The notes beneath the pieces are model-generated. The model was not told the origin of the DNA. It ran no database searches and worked only from the letters and a program-made list of their open reading frames with translations. Positions 2,058-8,702 of a DNA stretch of 8,702 nt are shown here, one piece after another; within the stretch, counting starts at the first letter, position 1; every line of letters begins with the position of its first letter. A program made the translations under genes and the position numbers. Origin of the DNA: a virus (taxonomy: Duplodnaviria > Heunggongvirae > Uroviricota > Caudoviricetes); IMG/VR virus record IMGVR_UViG_2648501318_000014; one strand, given 5' to 3'.

Positions 2058-5000
2058 TAATAACCTGCGCCTGCAGGTCATTCTTAATGCGGTTGACAAA
2101 CTCACCCGCCCATTCCGTGCTGCACAGGCCAGTTCGAAAGAGCTGGCTGGCGCAATTCAGAATACCCGAAACAGCCTCAAAGAACTGAATAAGCAGGCTG
2201 GCAGAATTGATGAATTTCGCAAGACGCGCTCGCAACTAGCCATAACAGCCAACAACCTGAACGCAGCCCGCGAAGAGGCGGCAAAACTCGCCACACAATT
2301 TGCTGCCACTAACAGGCCAACCGCCGCGCAGGCAAAGTTATTCAGTCAGGCCAAAACACGAGTACAGGAACTTCAGCAGACCTATAACGGCTTGTTGGGG
2401 GCGGTCCAGAGACAACGTCAGGCACTTAAAGAATCAGGGATTGATACCAGACAACTCAGTAGTGCCCAGCGAGAACTTAAGAAAAATGCTGAAGAAACAA
2501 GGCAGGCACTGGAGGGCCAGCAAAAAGCACTTAAACGTCTGGGTGAACAACAGGCACGGATGAACGCTGCCAGAGAACAATACTCAAGACGGCTTGAAGT
2601 GCGCGATCGCATCGCAGGAGCCGGAGCCACTACCACGGCTGCAGGGCTGGCAATGGGGGCGCCAGTGATGGCGGCAGTAAAAAGCTATACCAGCATGGAA
2701 GATGCCATGAAAGGTGTGGCAAAGCAGGTCAATGGTCTGCGTGACGATAATGGCAACCGCACTGCACGTTTTTATGAAATGCAGGATGCCATCAAGGCTG
2801 CCAGCGAACAGTTGCCGATGGAAAACGGTGCGGTGGACTTCGCTGCACTGGTTGAAGGTGGTGCGCGCATGAACGTCGCAAACCCTGACGACAGCTGGGA
2901 AGACCAGAAACGTGACCTGCTGGCCTTCGCCAGTACGGCAGCAAAGGCGGCAACAGCCTTTGAGCTGCCAGCGGATGAACTGTCAGAAAGTCTGGGGAAA
3001 ATCGCCCAGCTCTACAAAATACCAACCCGCAATATTGAACAGCTCGGCGATGCGCTGAACTATCTGGATGATAACGCCATGTCGAAAGGGGCGGACATCA
3101 TTGATGTGATGCAACGTCTGGGCGGTGTGGCTGACCGTCTGGATTATCGTAAAGCGGCGGTGCTGGGTTCCACCTTCCTGACACTGGGCGCTGCGCCGGA
3201 GGTTGCAGCCAGTGCAGCAAACGCGATGGTGCGTGAATTGTCCATTGCCACCATGCAGAGCAAGAGTTTCTTTGAAGGGATGAATCTGCTGAAACTCAAT
3301 CCTGAAGTGATTGAAAAGCAGATGACGAAGGATGCGATGGGAACTATCCAGCGTGTGCTGGAGAAGGTGAACGCACTGCCGCAGGACAAGCGTCTGTCTG
3401 CCATGACCATGTTGTTTGGTAAAGAGTTTGGCGATGACGCGGCGAAACTGGCAAACAACCTGCCGGAACTGCAGCGTCAGTTAAAACTGACAGCGGGCAA
3501 TGATGCGCTCGGCTCCATGCAGAAAGAATCCGACATCAATAAGGACTCACTTTCTGCTCAGTGGTTACTGGTCAAAACCGGAGCGCAGAACACCTTCAGC
3601 AGCCTGGGCGAAACGCTGCGCCAGCCGCTGATGGATATTCTGTACACGGTGAAAAGCATCACGGGGGCGTTGCGCCGCTGGGTGGAAGCTAACCCGGAAC
3701 TGACAGGCACACTGATGAAAGTAGCGGCTGTTGTGGCTGCGGTTACCGTAGGCCTCGGCACCTTAGTGGTGGCGCTGGCTGCAGTGCTGGGGCCGCTGGC
3801 AGTCATCCGTCTGGGATTCTCTGTGCTGGGTATCAAAACGTTACCTTCCGTTACGGCAGCAGTAACACGAACCAGCAGCGCGTTGTCCTGGTTAGCTGGC
3901 GCTCCACTGGCACTGCTGCGACGCGGGCTTGCTTCATCGGGCAACGCAGCGGGTTTACTTACTGCGCCGTTGTCGTCTTTGCGCCGCACGGCATCACTGA
4001 CGGGGAATGTCCTGAAAACTGTAGTAGGTGTGCCGGTTGCACTGTTGCGGTCTGGATTATCCGGTTTACGTGCTGTTGCTGTGATGTTTATGAATCCACT
4101 GGCAGCACTACGCGGTGGACTGGCTGCCGCAGGCGCGGTGCTGCGAGTACTGGCATCCGGTCCGCTGGCGATGCTGCGCGTTGCCCTGTATGCCATATCG
4201 GGTCTGTTAGGTGCTCTGCTCAGTCCGATAGGTCTTGTGGTTACTGCACTGGCGGGCGTGGCGCTGGTTGTCTGGAAATACTGGCAACCCATCACCGCAT
4301 TTCTCGCTGGTGTGGTGGAAGGATTCAAAGCGGCGGCAGGTCCCATCAGTGCAGCATTCGAACCACTTAAGCCTGTGTTTCAGTGGATTGGCGACAAAGT
4401 GCAGGCGTTGTGGGGCTGGTTTACTGATCTGCTGACGCCCGTTAAGTCGACCTCTGCCGAACTGCAGAGCGCAGCGGCAATGGGGCGACGATTCGGGGAG
4501 GCACTGGCGGAAGGGCTGAATATGGTCATGCATCCGCTGGACTCCCTGAAATCCGGCGTTTCCTGGTTGCTGGAGAAACTCGGCATTGTCAGTAAAGAGG
4601 CTGCAAAGGCGAAATTGCCGGAAAGAGTGACGCGTCAGCAACCTGCGACGGTGAATGCAGACGGTAAAGTGATGATGCCATCGGGTGGTTTTCCGTCATG
4701 GGGATATGGCTTTGCGGGGATGTATGACAGCGGCGGCTATATCCCGCGCGGGCAGTTTGGCATCGTCGGTGAAAACGGGCCGGAAATTGTTAACGGCCCG
4801 GCAAATGTGACCAGCCGGAGAAATACAGCTGCACTGGCTGCCGTTGTTGCCGGAATGATGGGCGTTGCTGCCGCGCCTGCAGAGCTTCCACCGTTGCATC
4901 CTTTGGCACTTCCCGCGAAAGGCGGCGAAGCGATGGTGAGTCGTGCAGCCACTGTGCCGCCCGTTCACCGGATTGAGGCACCGACGCAGATCATCATTCA

Positions 5001-5609: not shown

Positions 5610-6706
5610 ATTTCAGCTCTGAACTGCTTAACAAAGGCAACAAAACTCCCGCATTCAGCATCAGTATTGAGGGCAGGGATATCAACACTGTGCTGGATAA
5701 CCGCCTGATGAGTTTGACTCTGACGGACAATCGGGGCTTTGAAGCGGACCAGCTTGATCTGGAGCTGGACGACGCCGACGGAAAAATCGTGCTGCCGCGC
5801 CGTGGTGCGGTCATTACGCTGGCGCTGGGCTGGAAGGGGCAGCCGCTTTTCCCTAAAGGGGCATTCACGGTGGACGAGATTGAACACACTGGCGCACCGG
5901 ACCGCCTGACTATCCGGGCGCGAAGTGCTGATTTTCGTGAAACGCTGAATACCCGCCGTGAAAAGTCGTGGCACAAGACCACCGTTGGGGAAGTGGTGAA
6001 GGAAATAGCCTCGCGGCATAAGCTGAAGATGGCACTGGGTAAAGACCTGTCGGATAAGCCCGTGGAACATATAGACCAGACCAATGAGAGTGACGGCAGT
6101 TTTCTGATGCGGCTGGCGCGCCAGTACGGTGCTATTGCGTCGGTGAAAAATGGCAATCTGTTATTCATCCGGCAGGGACAGGGTAAAAGCGCCAGCGGTA
6201 AACCACTGCCGGTGATCACTATCACACGCAAGGACGGCGACAGTCACCGCTTTACCCTGGCAGATCGCGGAGCCTACACGGGCGTAATTGCCAGCTGGTT
6301 GCATACCCGCGAACCCGCGAAGAAAGAAAGCACTACGGTGAAGCGTAAGCGCAGAACGAAGAATCAGAAGAAAGAGCCGGAAGCGAAGCAGGGCGATTAC
6401 CTGGTGGGTACGGATGAAAACGTGCTGGTACTCAATCGCACCTATGCCAATCGGAGTAACGCCGAACGGGCAGCGAAAATGCAGTGGGAACGCCTGCAAC
6501 GCGGCGTTGCGTCATTCTCGCTACAACTGGCGGAAGGGCGGGCAGATCTCTACACGGAAATGCCAGTGAAAGTCAGTGGCTTTAAACAGCCGATAGATGA
6601 TGCGGAATGGACCATTACGACTCTGACACATACCGTCAGCCCGGATAATGGTTTTACGACCAGTCTTGAGCTTGAAGTGAAGGTTGATGATCTCGAAATG
6701 GAATGA
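5606..6706 (+). CDS. D: Tail protein D (P2 gpD, late control D family)
   Basis: 366-aa ORF with GTG start overlapping the U stop (GTGA at 5606-5609); position immediately upstream of ogr as in P2. Confidence 0.85.
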   Translation: MNFSSELLNKGNKTPAFSISIEGRDINTVLDNRLMSLTLTDNRGFEADQLDLELDDADGKIVLPRRGAVITLALGWKGQPLFPKGAFTVDEIEHTGAPDRLTIRARSADFRETLNTRREKSWHKTTVGEVVKEIASRHKLKMALGKDLSDKPVEHIDQTNESDGSFLMRLARQYGAIASVKNGNLLFIRQGQGKSASGKPLPVITITRKDGDSHRFTLADRGAYTGVIASWLHTREPAKKESTTVKRKRRTKNQKKEPEAKQGDYLVGTDENVLVLNRTYANRSNAERAAKMQWERLQRGVASFSLQLAEGRADLYTEMPVKVSGFKQPIDDAEWTITTLTHTVSPDNGFTTSLELEVKVDDLEME

Positions 6707-6743
6707 TTCTTTACAATGGAGAACTTTTAAGTTTGAAAAATGG

Positions 6744-6763
6744 AATAATGCGATATCATTATT
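6744..6763. promoter_or_regulatory. Dyad-symmetric element aataatgcgatatcattatt upstream of ogr; possible operator or promoter-associated site
   Basis: 7-nt arms aataatg / cattatt around a GATATC core, about 35-50 nt upstream of the ogr start; function not established. Confidence 0.2.
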
Positions 6764-6796
6764 GTGAATTTAGCAAAAATGGGGAGAACTCGAAAA

Positions 6797-7015
6797 ATGA
6801 TGATTTGCCCACTGTGTGGAAGTGCCGCCCATACTCGCAGCAGTTTTCAGGTATCTTCATTGACCAAAGAGCGTTACAACCAGTGCCAGAACATTAACTG
6901 CAGCCATACTTTTGTTACCCATGAAACTTTTGTTCGTTCGATTGCAACGCCAAAAGAGTCAAATCCGGTTCAGCCGCATCCTCATAAATTTAAACAGGTG
7001 GGTTTGCCGATTTAA
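6797..7015 (+). CDS. ogr: Ogr/Delta-type C4 zinc-finger late transcription activator, 72 aa
   Basis: MMICPLCGSAAHTRSS...KERYNQCQNINCSHTF matches the CxxC...CxxxxC Ogr zinc finger; SD GGGGAG about 10 nt upstream of the ATG at 6797; 72 aa as in P2 Ogr. The ORF-track start at 6764 adds a non-homologous extension and is less likely. Confidence 0.85.
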   Translation: MMICPLCGSAAHTRSSFQVSSLTKERYNQCQNINCSHTFVTHETFVRSIATPKESNPVQPHPHKFKQVGLPI

Positions 7016-7078
7016 ATGGCGACATAACTACATGATTTAAAACTATACTTTTCTATAAGTTGAGGTTAAATTAACAAT

Positions 7079-7256
7079 GCCTGACGTTAGCGGGGATTTA
7101 TCCCCACTCCGTAGATATGTAGTTTGTCGCTTTGCGACTGCGGACCGATTACCTGATTGCCATGTAATCGGACGCCGACTTGTTAAGCTTTCTGGGCTAA
7201 CTGGTTGTTATTTTTTATTTAGTTAGGGCCATGCGCTTGCGCTAAGAGACGTCAGG
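7079..7256 (+). ncRNA. Candidate structured noncoding RNA upstream of the RT operon (retron msr/msd-like), bounded by an imperfect inverted repeat
   Basis: Left arm gcctgacgttagcg (7079-7092) pairs with right arm cgctaa-gaga-cgtcagg (7240-7256): 13 bp with a 4-nt bulge. TTAGCG followed by a G-run sits just inside the left arm. Internal hairpins at 7092-7105, 7126-7138 and 7145-7171. No ORF. An AT-rich promoter-like stretch lies upstream and an SD follows the right arm. Confidence 0.3.
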
Positions 7257-7276
7257 TATCTATGGAGGAACAAGTT

Positions 7277-7450
7277 ATGGATACAAACGAACTTGGCTTA
7301 GTTAAGGCGCGTGTTGAACTGATCACCGCTATGCTCAAATGCGCAACCGCGTTTGTTGGCTTAGTTGGTGCGGTTTACGCCGTTCTTAACATGGCCTTCA
7401 ACTACAGCAATTTAACTCATGACAATAGAAGTTCAAAGGTGGGAAGATAA
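7277..7450 (+). CDS. Small hypothetical membrane protein (57 aa, one predicted TM helix); candidate effector or partner of the RT
   Basis: SD GGAGG at 7264-7268, 8 nt before the ATG at 7277; product MDTNELGLVKARVELITAMLKCATAFVGLVGAVYAVLNMAFNYSNLTHDNRSSKVGR has a ~25-residue hydrophobic core; its 3' end overlaps the RT start by 32 nt. Confidence 0.4.
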   Translation: MDTNELGLVKARVELITAMLKCATAFVGLVGAVYAVLNMAFNYSNLTHDNRSSKVGR

Positions 7451-8192
7451 ATTTGAGATTAAGCCCGGGGTTTGGGTTTATGTCCCAAGCGTTGAGGCAC
7501 GTAAAGTCGGAGGGAAGATACTTCAGGCTGTCAGAAACAAGTGGATTCCGCCACTCTATTTTTACCATCTAAGAACTGGTGGGCATCTTAAAGCTGCCAG
7601 ATTACACTTAAAAAGTGATTTTTTTGCCGTTGTTGATATTAAACAATTTTTTCAGTCAACGAGCCGTAGTCGTATCACCCGTGATCTAAAGAGCTACTTC
7701 ACCTATTCTCAAGCGCGGGAAATCTCAACATTTTCAACTGTAAGAAACTTGTCCCATAGTCCACATAAGCATGTCCTCCCTTTTGGTTTTGTTCAATCTC
7801 CAATACTTGCAACCCTCTGCTTAGATAAAAGTTATTTTGGTAGCTTACTACGCCGATTGAACAAACATCATGATCTCAAGCTAAGTGTGTTTATGGATGA
7901 TGTGATCATCTCGTCAAACGATTTGGCCCAATTACAAGCGGCTTACGACGAAGCACTAGTGGCAATGCGCAAATCTGGTTATCAAGCCAACATGAGTAAA
8001 ACTCAGGCACCATCGTCAAAGATTAGCGTGTTTAATTTAACTTTGAGTAAGGGAGTTATGAAAGTCACATCTCAGAAAATGAGTGACTTCCTGATTGATT
8101 TCTATTCAAGCAATTATGAGCCGCACAGAATAGGGGTCAAAAACTACGTCGAAGCTGTTAATCCAGGGCAAGCGAAACTCTTTAAGTTGTAA
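7419..8192 (+). CDS. Compact reverse transcriptase (257 aa) with retron-type motifs
   Basis: Motif 1/2-like YVPSVEARKVGGKIL; NAxxH-like AARLH; motif A FAVVDIKQFFQS (Asp codon 7635-7637); motif B LPFGFVQSPILATL; motif C VFMDDVII (Asp-Asp codons 7896-7901); KVTS in the position of the retron VTG motif. Frame is closed by TAA at 7413-7415 just upstream, so no longer N-terminus is possible. Confidence 0.85.
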   Translation: MTIEVQRWEDKFEIKPGVWVYVPSVEARKVGGKILQAVRNKWIPPLYFYHLRTGGHLKAARLHLKSDFFAVVDIKQFFQSTSRSRITRDLKSYFTYSQAREISTFSTVRNLSHSPHKHVLPFGFVQSPILATLCLDKSYFGSLLRRLNKHHDLKLSVFMDDVIISSNDLAQLQAAYDEALVAMRKSGYQANMSKTQAPSSKISVFNLTLSKGVMKVTSQKMSDFLIDFYSSNYEPHRIGVKNYVEAVNPGQAKLFKL

Positions 8193-8261
8193 TTGCGATC
8201 GCATGTAGTAGCAACTGGGCTTGACTGAATGCCTGCCGCCATTTTGCCGCCACTACCAAAG

Positions 8262-8289
8262 AAAAAAGGGCTACGCTTTCACGTAACCC
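8262..8289 (-). terminator. Intrinsic terminator of ssrA (minus strand); may also terminate the convergent RT operon
   Basis: On the minus strand: 8-bp stem GGGUUACG/CGUAGCCC (one G-U pair), 6-nt loop, then U6 (plus-strand aaaaaa 8262-8267), starting 12 nt after the ssrA 3' end. On the plus strand the same hairpin is followed by a T-rich stretch. Confidence 0.45.
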
Positions 8290-8300
8290 ATTGATTTATT

Positions 8301-8663
8301 TGGTGGAGCTGGCGGGAGTTGAACCCGCGTCCGAAATTCCTACATCCTCGGTACTACATGCTTAGTCAGTCTTTACATTCGCTTGCCAGCTGCGGACGGA
8401 CACGCCACTAACAAACTAGCCTGATTAAGTTTTAACGCTTCAACCCCAGGCAGGGCTTCCACGCGATCTCTTTTGGGTTTGACCTCTCTTGATCCCCGTC
8501 CTAAGAGCGGAGGCTAGGGAGAGAGGGCTCTAAGCAGGTTATTAAGCTGCTAAAGCGTAGTTTTCGTCGTTTGCGACTATTTTTTGCGGCTTTTTACGAG
8601 GCCAACCGCCCCTCGGCATGCACCTTGGGTTTCGCAAATCCCGTCGAATCCAGAATCAGCCCC
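8301..8663 (-). ncRNA. ssrA: tmRNA (transfer-messenger RNA, SsrA), complete 363-nt gene
   Basis: Reverse complement begins GGGGCTGATTCTGGATTCGACGGG and ends GGTTCAACTCCCGCCAGCTCCACCA; the tag reading frame GCAAACGACGAAAACTACGCTTTAGCAGCTTAA (ANDENYALAA-stop) is at 8542-8574. Matches enterobacterial ssrA as I recall it. Confidence 0.95.
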
Positions 8664-8677
8664 AATGTGTAAAGGTA

Positions 8678-8683
8678 AGTATA
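8678..8683 (-). promoter_or_regulatory. Putative -10 hexamer (TATACT on the minus strand) of the ssrA promoter
   Basis: TATACT lies 14 nt upstream of the mature tmRNA 5' end, consistent with a short processed leader; the -35 region would be at or beyond the window edge. Confidence 0.3.
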
Positions 8684-8702
8684 CCAGATTTATGAGCGCC
8701 AT

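Follow-up and report, generated by a model that had tools for sequence, protein, structure and literature searches.

Type VI retrons are organized in the order non-coding RNA (ncRNA), small protein (SP), helix-turn-helix (HTH) protein and reverse transcriptase (RT), and the small hydrophobic helical protein encoded between ncRNA and RT is a toxin (10.1101/2025.10.22.683967; 10.64898/2026.04.27.721009). In Retron-Vpa2, the ncRNA and SP are carried on one abundant "hybrid RNA"; the SP is a toxin that requires its hydrophobic C-terminal helix, and it is translationally repressed until complementary DNA (cDNA) accumulates (10.1101/2025.10.22.683967). The SP of Retron-Sen3 is made constitutively and neutralized by the HTH protein, and an HTH accessory gene (cl2_1 / HTH_VI, Cro/C1-type) is present in approximately 78% of Type VI members. 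Here, we describe a locus of similar layout in a Caudoviricetes sequence of 8,702 nucleotides (nt), IMG/VR record IMGVR_UViG_2648501318_000014; this whole stretch is referred to as the window. It carries a gene for a 57-amino-acid (aa) SP (7277..7450, plus strand; MDTNELGLVKARVELITAMLKCATAFVGLVGAVYAVLNMAFNYSNLTHDNRSSKVGR) between a retron-like structured ncRNA and the gene of a retron-like RT.

On comparative sequence evidence, the SP is best explained as an obligate, translationally coupled partner of the RT in a compact three-part module, and it is possibly the toxic effector of that module. The ncRNA, SP and RT follow one another on the same strand, presumably within a single transcript, and this layout is kept from Enterobacterales to Burkholderiales and Rhodanobacteraceae. 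The loci used for comparison included L002, a variant of 77% identity carried by a P2-like prophage integrated elsewhere; L003, a more divergent locus from E. coli; L010-L027, from 18 viral contigs; and L004-L009, six loci with RTs of 39-43% identity that come from Pandoraea, Paraburkholderia, Herbaspirillum and a Rhodanobacteraceae metagenome-assembled genome.

The SP gene runs from the ATG at 7277-7279 through 57 codons to the TAA stop at 7448-7450. Its Shine-Dalgarno (SD) sequence, GGAGG at 7264..7268 (plus strand), begins 8 nt past the ncRNA 3′ arm, which ends at 7256, and lies 8 nt ahead of the ATG. The predicted anti-SD duplex has an energy of -9.3 kcal/mol against a window background mean of -2.5, in agreement with the sequence-only reading, which had described a 57-aa open reading frame (ORF) with a good SD at this position. 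A strong SD precedes the small ORF in 14/14 distinct loci (mean -7.4 kcal/mol), and the distances between 3′ arm, SD and ATG are constant in every clade. An upstream ATG at 7262 is not kept, being ACG in L017 and L018, which identifies 7277 as the true SP start. The same 57-aa ORF is already present in RefSeq/PGAP as the hypothetical protein WP_001384722.1.

The window contains 57 ORFs of at least 40 aa, and an ORF of SP size is not significant on its own; it is the conservation in other loci that raises the SP above chance. The sequence-only reading had looked to conservation of the ORF with the RT in other genomes as a check, and all 26 related loci examined, reaching as low as 39% RT identity, have an equivalent ORF. 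These ORFs span 47-64 codons and in all 26 loci occupy a frame different from that of the RT. In eight SP pairs, the ratio of nonsynonymous to synonymous substitution rates (dN/dS) is 0.16-0.56, with third-position changes in excess; two pairs in the L003/L023/L024 clade give values above 1, on just 2.5-3.5 synonymous differences. By these sequence comparisons, the small ORF is a genuine conserved gene, mostly under purifying selection.

Neither the window peptide nor 15 diverse members had a significant match in Pfam, PADLOC, NCBIfam or PHROGs, the sole PHROGs match being insignificant (E = 0.077). An exhaustive HMMER search of 1.84 billion representatives with a close-family SP profile returned five hits only, three of which are new free-standing SP relatives of 60-85 aa. 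Searches by accession and keyword found no published description of this RT or peptide lineage; the SP is annotated but uncharacterized. A 59-aa SP homolog labeled Bacillus thuringiensis (P0080) sits on a 249-bp contig and is probably contamination, not a true Firmicutes occurrence.

The 3′ end of the SP gene overlaps the 5′ end of the RT gene by 32 nt (7419..7450, plus strand), with the RT in the +1 frame, and this overlap is the proposed site of translational coupling. In all 26 related loci, the small ORF ends 19-43 nt within the RT gene; the overlap measures 20-44 nt in the 14 distinct loci, and the RT frame relative to the SP is +1 in 13/14 distinct loci and +2 in L024. The 20 nt ahead of the RT ATG contain no SD (+1.2 kcal/mol, against the window background of -2.5), and the RT start is likewise without an SD in 14/14 distinct loci (mean -0.4 kcal/mol, weaker than background). 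An in-frame TAA at 7413-7415 rules out an RT start earlier than the ATG at 7419. In every lineage, the RT start is SD-less and lies within the small ORF, which makes coupling of RT translation to SP translation the simplest reading of these sequences, as the sequence-only reading had suggested from the SD-less ATG 32 nt inside the ORF. It is established in bacteria that ribosomes, after termination, can restart at an AUG lying a short distance upstream even when this AUG has no SD.

In three lineages, the stop and the frame difference are absent and the peptide forms the in-frame N-terminus of the RT. These fusions comprise a Klebsiella protein of 302 aa (7,802 blocks of the assembly index, mostly Klebsiella), a Serratia protein of 309 aa, whose 90% cluster also has an unfused member of 252 aa, and a metagenomic protein of 306 aa. 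The DNA of the fusion loci confirmed the in-frame junction and contains the same upstream RNA blocks. Approximately 117 of 120 homolog clusters are unfused. In an AlphaFold2 model of a natural fusion, the RT body has a predicted local distance difference test score (pLDDT) of 87-99, and the SP helix, modeled at 41-70 from an alignment just three sequences deep over that region, is joined to it by a disordered linker.

The RT gene (7419..8192, plus strand) encodes 257 aa with a Pfam RVT_1 match of 2e-21 and a catalytic FMDD at 7890-7901; at least 90% of aligned homologs have Y at the first of these positions (YMDD/YVDD). Its best PADLOC profile is RT_VI, at 63 bits over profile positions 49-242/279, nearly level with other retron clades, the next profiles matching at 59, 54.5 and 52.5 bits. 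The comparator Type VI RT, gp44 of Burkholderia phage KS5, scores 260 bits on RT_VI over positions 1-275, with the next match at 115. On NCBIfam retron_St85_RT, the window RT reaches 49.5 bits against a cut-off of 235, and all curated family cut-offs are missed. The 13 best Protein Data Bank sequence matches are all retron RTs (Ec86, 2e-13). In a Foldseek search with the model of a fused homolog, the top 18 hits are retron RTs, with template-modeling scores of 0.59-0.69, and the RTs of DRT9, group II introns, diversity-generating retroelements and DRT2 rank below them. UG/Abi profiles barely match (best UG33, 33 bits).

The window RT was also compared with Ec86 and KS5 gp44 at residue level. 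It is missing approximately 47 N-terminal residues, residue 6 aligning with residue 48 of KS5 gp44 and the Ec86 alignment beginning at residue 60. Retron RTs are marked by a region X with NAXXH between RT2 and RT3 (H most conserved) and a region Y with VTG in RT7 (G most conserved), the latter said to direct the RT to its msr (PMC7736814). In region X, the window RT has A59-A-x-x-H63, with A59 and H63 family-invariant, aligned to N-A-T-P-H of Ec86; the H is retained and the N is not. In region Y (residues 204-206), V-F-N replaces VTG, with F205 and N206 family-invariant; K-V-T-G of Ec86 aligns with K-V-F-N, and KS5 gp44 has KVTG. The RT is retron-like by sequence and by predicted fold, and falls within no named family.

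The ncRNA (7077..7259, plus strand) consists of a 5′ arm CCTGACGTTAG (7080-7090), hairpins at 7092-7105, 7126-7138 and 7145-7171, a variable core, a U-rich tract, a 3′ block CATGCGCTTGCGCTAAG (7230-7246) and a 3′ arm CGTCAGG (7250-7256). Its minimum free energy (MFE) is -67.7 kcal/mol (z = -4.7 against shuffled controls), with a 12-bp closing stem in the MFE structure. The 5′ block (CCTGACGTTAG) and the 3′ block (CATGCGCTTGCGCTAAG...GTCAGG) are invariant among enterobacterial clades whose RTs are merely 45-50% identical, and a hairpin of varying sequence follows the 5′ arm in every clade. The closing stem covaries, CCTGACG/CGTCAGG in Enterobacterales being replaced by CCCGGC/GCCGGG in Burkholderiales. 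Its six core pairs are paired in 100% of sequences, against 25-40% for slid controls; two of the six are fully compensatory switches that rest on essentially one phylogenetic split. An invariant TAG after the 5′ arm resembles the branching-G context of Ec86 and is, by its sequence, compatible with branched priming of multicopy single-stranded DNA. A permissive Rfam scan of 6700-8702 returned transfer-messenger RNA (tmRNA) only, leaving the ncRNA without a family match.

The variable core of the ncRNA contains short tandem repeats whose copy number differs among loci. L003 has 7.3 copies of TGGGTATCCT at 2577-2648, L023 has 7.6 copies of TGGGACTCC at 2231-2298, and L018 carries one extra TTACTGGGY unit relative to L017 (~2230-2270). 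In the window, 7189-7205 holds only a degenerate repeat remnant, where TRF finds nothing. A repetitive cDNA would be expected if the repeat region were the template for reverse transcription.

A further RNA feature lies within the SP gene itself. The sequence TTGGCTTAG at 7296-7304 (codons 7-9) is invariant across enterobacterial clades, synonymous sites included, and L021 keeps its CTTAG despite different amino acids. CUUAG in the small ORF and the invariant CUAAG in the 3′ block of the ncRNA (7242-7246) are complementary, and at the same two places Burkholderiales have GUCUAG pairing with CUAGAC. These complementary sequences hint at RNA-level pairing between the small ORF and the ncRNA; RNAalifold gave no consensus structure. 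A candidate intrinsic terminator at 7540-7563, a hairpin with a U-run approximately 120 nt into the RT gene, would give an ncRNA+SP transcript of ~490 nt, near the Vpa2 hybrid RNA in size. It was rejected, being absent in GC-rich Burkholderiales loci. The hairpin is built from Trp (TGG) and Pro (CCA) codons with U-rich Tyr/Phe codons and is therefore probably incidental; weak hairpins like it also occur in AT-rich relatives.

AlphaFold2, run with 17 homologs, predicts the SP as one continuous helix over residues 3-54, with pLDDT of 89-95 at residues 11-40; the tail that overlaps the RT gene is weakly conserved and has pLDDT of ~49-62. The hydrophobic core of the helix, L15-F41 (7319..7399, plus strand), has a 19-residue Kyte-Doolittle (KD) maximum of 1.94 and a single Lys, and is a candidate membrane-spanning or oligomerizing segment in the window clade. 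Hydropathy, insertion free energy (dG) and hydrophobic moment were all taken from simple scales. The uncharged stretch A23-F41 has a mean KD of 1.82 by hand calculation, and the summed biological-scale dG of the window helix is about +1.9 kcal/mol, a borderline transmembrane value. Across the window subfamily, 19-23 uncharged residues precede an NY motif (KD 1.8-2.2, 19-residue maximum 1.9-2.2, dG +0.7 to +1.9), and the remote relatives P0209, P0211 and P0212 have similar hydropathy; with these relatives included, KD in the subfamily is 1.8-2.35, with no more than one charge.

The sequence-only reading had proposed a single transmembrane helix, and this description fits the window subfamily but not most other clades. 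In the L003, L021, Klebsiella and Paraburkholderia types, the equivalent helix has 3-4 charged residues (dG +5 to +9 kcal/mol) and is amphipathic, with a hydrophobic moment of 0.45-0.61. In a positionwise alignment, E, K, S and H of L003 correspond to G, A, A and N of the window, which indicates that the transmembrane-like character is a lineage-specific hydrophobic version of a shared amphipathic helix. No consistent positive-inside charge pattern was found at the helix ends across the family.

The helix core is followed by Asn42-Tyr43 (AAC TAC, 7400..7405, plus strand), as established from the family alignment, further members and 17 close homologs. Met1, Asn42 and Tyr43 are invariant in the family alignment, and Asn is replaced by His in one further lineage, leaving Tyr as the only strictly invariant residue besides Met1; it is never F or W in ~21 distinct sequences. 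The Asn-Tyr codons differ between loci (AAC/AAT, TAC/TAT), so that conservation acts at the protein level.

The module shares with the Type VI retrons Retron-Vpa2, Retron-Eco12 and Retron-Sen3 a small helical hydrophobic protein encoded between ncRNA and RT on the same strand. The SP ribosome-binding site is likewise adjacent to the ncRNA basal stem, giving the order ncRNA, SD, SP, RT in the window, and both have a compact retron-type RT and occur as P2-like phage cargo (KS5 gp44/gp45). Unlike most Type VI retrons, however, the window module has no HTH gene, and none was found linked to the module in the distant loci compared; the SP has no PADLOC match, whereas KS5 gp45 scores 117 bits on HTH_VI. 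The window RT lies outside the Type VI clade (63 versus 260 bits), with its short N-terminus and VFN for VTG. The SP also differs in being one long predicted helix, where Type VI SPs are bundles of 2-3 helices, and in overlapping the RT or fusing with it. Phage KS5 (L028) contains in 2445-2740 (minus strand) an unannotated ORF, 2482-2736, upstream of the Type VI HTH gene gp45. Read from an internal Met, it encodes a 67-aa protein with a hydrophobic C-terminus (...FHWLVVKIPEWADKLFGMFFS), which by sequence and position is probably the KS5 SP.

Other systems resemble the locus in single respects. The effector of the Type IV retron (Retron-Eco6/Ec48) is also a small predicted membrane protein, and the Type IV RT belongs to the same broad clade as the Type VI RT (PMC7736814). 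That effector, however, has two transmembrane helices and is encoded downstream of, or overlapping, the RT 3′ end, whereas the SP has one helix and lies upstream, and transmembrane character is not conserved in its family. AbiK, Abi-P2 and DRT9 share with the module a conserved Tyr on a flexible segment beside the RT domain (PMC9508834, PMC12483538); Abi-P2 is also P2-prophage cargo, and DRT9 also combines an RT with an ncRNA and has an NYDY priming peptide (PMC12483538). Unlike the window RT, these are UG/Abi-class RTs of ~500 aa whose own chain carries the Tyr and which lack a small partner ORF. No sequence similarity between the SP and small hydrophobic toxins was detected in any library searched. 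Hok/TisB and holin-like peptides, of ~50-60 aa with a single hydrophobic helix, resemble the window SP and are plausible membrane-depolarizing killers, but they are controlled by antisense RNAs or lysis timing and have no link to an RT. The layout of the module is best described as Type VI-like, but its RT is of a separate lineage, the HTH is missing, and its partner peptide overlaps the RT or is fused to it.

By analogy with Type VI retrons, which provide a direct precedent for the toxic partner suggested in the sequence-only reading, the SP may be the toxic effector of a minimal, HTH-less retron-like module, a plausible reading that we stop just short of calling probable. If, as we infer, ribosomes load only at the SP SD, no RT would be made without SP translation, and the RT would arise through termination-reinitiation within the overlap. 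The RT would bind the closing stem and the conserved 3′ block and, in the manner of retron RTs, convert a portion of the ncRNA into cDNA, with the SP as the toxic output. In uninfected cells, an RT-ncRNA(-cDNA) complex would restrain the SP, either beside the SP ribosome-binding site or by binding the SP directly, and a phage that perturbs this complex would free it. In the window clade, residues 15-41 appear hydrophobic enough for insertion into the inner membrane, which would lead to killing by membrane damage; in other clades, the amphipathic helix may instead target the membrane surface or a protein. We infer the toxicity, restraint and trigger of the SP by analogy, since the small hydrophobic helical protein in the same position of Type VI retrons is a toxin. 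No further gene is consistently linked to the module in the flanks of the window, L002, the distant loci and the Klebsiella loci compared; because the neighboring genes change with every lineage, no candidate effector other than the SP remains. The transmembrane-like hydropathy of the window subfamily, the single long AlphaFold2 helix, and the confident folding of the RT body without the SP are also in favor of this proposal.

Several observations weigh against a toxic effector. Transmembrane character is not conserved in the family and has no consistent charge topology, and the HTH antitoxin of most Type VI retrons is absent. A toxin with a strong SD, encoded upstream of and made in excess over its sole possible neutralizer, would need restraint, and none was found. 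In particular, RNAalifold on 13 loci from -56 to +60 gave zero pairs for a hairpin hiding the SP SD or AUG, as in Vpa2 and Sen3, so the local hairpin in the window MFE structure is not general. The three in-frame SP-RT fusions, one of them in thousands of Klebsiella assemblies, would fit an RT subunit at least equally well, and the sole invariant residue is a Tyr, for which a membrane toxin has no obvious need. BLASTP and hhalign detected no similarity between the SP and the single inferred KS5 SP candidate, a comparison of low power given the short helices that covered this candidate only; the known SP clusters of Type VI retrons are cl2075, cl2760, cl3272 and cl3897.

The fusions bear most directly on the possibility that the SP is not toxic and serves as an accessory subunit, in the form of a detachable N-terminal helix that oligomerizes or stabilizes the RT-ncRNA complex, with the antiviral output coming from the RT product as in the RT-plus-ncRNA-only systems DRT2 and DRT9. 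We regard this as unlikely, although it would account for much of the locus: the fusions are independent and include fused and unfused forms within one 90% cluster, the RT is short by ~47 N-terminal residues and the non-overlapping part of the SP is 47 codons, translational coupling would favor co-assembly, and the A/G small-residue spacing in the SP helix suits helix-helix packing. The N-terminal part of the Vpa2 SP has also been reported to mediate oligomerization or colocalization (10.1101/2025.10.22.683967). On the other hand, the fusion model leaves the helix outside the confident RT fold, which is weak evidence because of the shallow alignment there, and BLASTP and hhalign comparisons with the N-terminus of a retron RT (KS5 gp44 residues 1-80) were negative, again with low power for short helices. 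L002 pairs an ncRNA and SP 5′ half of window type with an RT that is only 67% identical, and this mosaic makes a tight SP-RT co-adaptation not obvious. The invariant Tyr raises a different possibility, which we consider improbable, in which the SP is a terminal-protein-like primer: the hydroxyl of Tyr43 would serve as the primer for reverse transcription, acting in trans or, in fused forms, in cis, and leaving the cDNA covalently on the SP, with the hydrophobic helix as an oligomerization device or membrane tether. Such a system would be a split, retron-derived analog of AbiK/DRT9 self-priming and of the hepadnaviral terminal protein-spacer-RT(YMDD) arrangement. The strict conservation of the Tyr, its predicted position between the helix and a low-confidence tail or linker, and the replacement of the msr-directing VTG by VFN would all suit a primer. 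In AbiK, the priming residue is Tyr44, located in an unstructured loop at the N-terminus (PMC9508834), and the priming tyrosines of DRT9 lie in ...SLNYDYE (PMC12483538), which resembles the [LF]NYD[YC] of many SPs. However, the nearest relatives of the RT by sequence and fold are retron RTs, which prime from the 2′-OH of an RNA guanosine; DRT9 ranks under 18 retron hits in Foldseek and AbiK is not among the top 50, the UG/Abi profile matches are marginal, and the ncRNA has a retron-style closing stem followed by the invariant TAG. A Tyr ending a hydrophobic helix is also typical of membrane-interface residues, and priming does not explain the long hydrophobic helix.

Two further explanations concern translation rather than the folded peptide. 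The SP gene could be a leader ORF in which translation alone matters, delivering ribosomes to the SD-less RT start and yielding a functionless peptide. The constant placement of that start inside the ORF (14/14 loci) and the weakly conserved C-terminal tail would suit a leader, but dN/dS lies well under 1 in most pairs, and length, helix and [N/H]Y motif are kept down to 39% RT identity while codons vary. In addition, 57 codons far exceed what coupling needs and the peptide is retained in the fusions; we find a mere leader very improbable. We give equally little credence to a programmed +1 frameshift within the 32-nt overlap, which would yield an SP-RT fusion in the window phage functionally like the Klebsiella and Serratia fusions. 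Consistent with such a shift, 13/14 loci place the RT in the +1 frame, in-frame fusions exist naturally, and rare Arg codons (AGA) occur within the overlap. Against it, no slippery or stimulatory motif is conserved, the overlap varies in length and sequence, L024 would require the opposite shift (+2/-1), and the RT-frame stop at 7413-7415 limits any shift to a short, unconserved stretch.

If the module works as proposed, it would rank with the most compact retron-type modules of which we are aware (~1.1 kb; ncRNA, 57-aa SP and 257-aa RT), and it has neither a separate antitoxin nor a separate regulator. Current tools miss the module, all PADLOC and NCBIfam matches being weak and the NCBIfam ones under curated cut-offs, yet the module is common. 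Because the HTH layer is absent, it would offer a stripped-down system for questions of control and killing by Type VI-like small proteins, and the natural interconversion of fused and unfused forms provides ready-made genetic variants. The invariant Tyr and the loss of VTG also raise the possibility of a different priming chemistry.

The window represents the right end of a P2-like prophage, with the tape measure gene, gpU, gpD and ogr identified by Pfam. The P2 late-gene activator gene ogr (6797..7015, plus strand; Pfam Ogr_Delta 6.7e-22; PGAP annotation) is the final phage gene ahead of the cargo. The right boundary is the tmRNA gene ssrA (8301..8663, minus strand; Rfam RF00023, 295.8 bits; PGAP annotation), the integration site of the prophage. 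Between ogr and the attachment site lies a cargo of 1.1 kb made up of the structured RNA, the small ORF and the RT gene; no ORF other than SP and RT was found in the cargo, flanked by ogr on the left and ssrA on the right. A scan of the plus strand between ogr and the ncRNA found no sigma-70 promoter. Among 5,426 complete E. coli genomes, 33-34 carry the cargo, which also occurs in 13 Klebsiella phage records and in P2-like prophages of several enterobacteria.

The L002 cargo lies in a P2-like prophage beside ybjL, an integration site unlike that of the window. The late genes, ogr, ncRNA and small-ORF 5′ half of L002 are 98-100% identical to the window, while the remainder of the small ORF and the RT gene are only 55-80% identical; this drop, at window position ~7330, indicates a recombination breakpoint inside the small ORF. 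In Klebsiella (L029/L030, 1-1830), a chromosomal fused SP-RT gene lies directly downstream of umuD-umuC homologs, and upstream of these homologs L029 also contains the 3′ end of a further RT gene (494 aa, RVT_1). This neighborhood suggests a defense or SOS-linked island.

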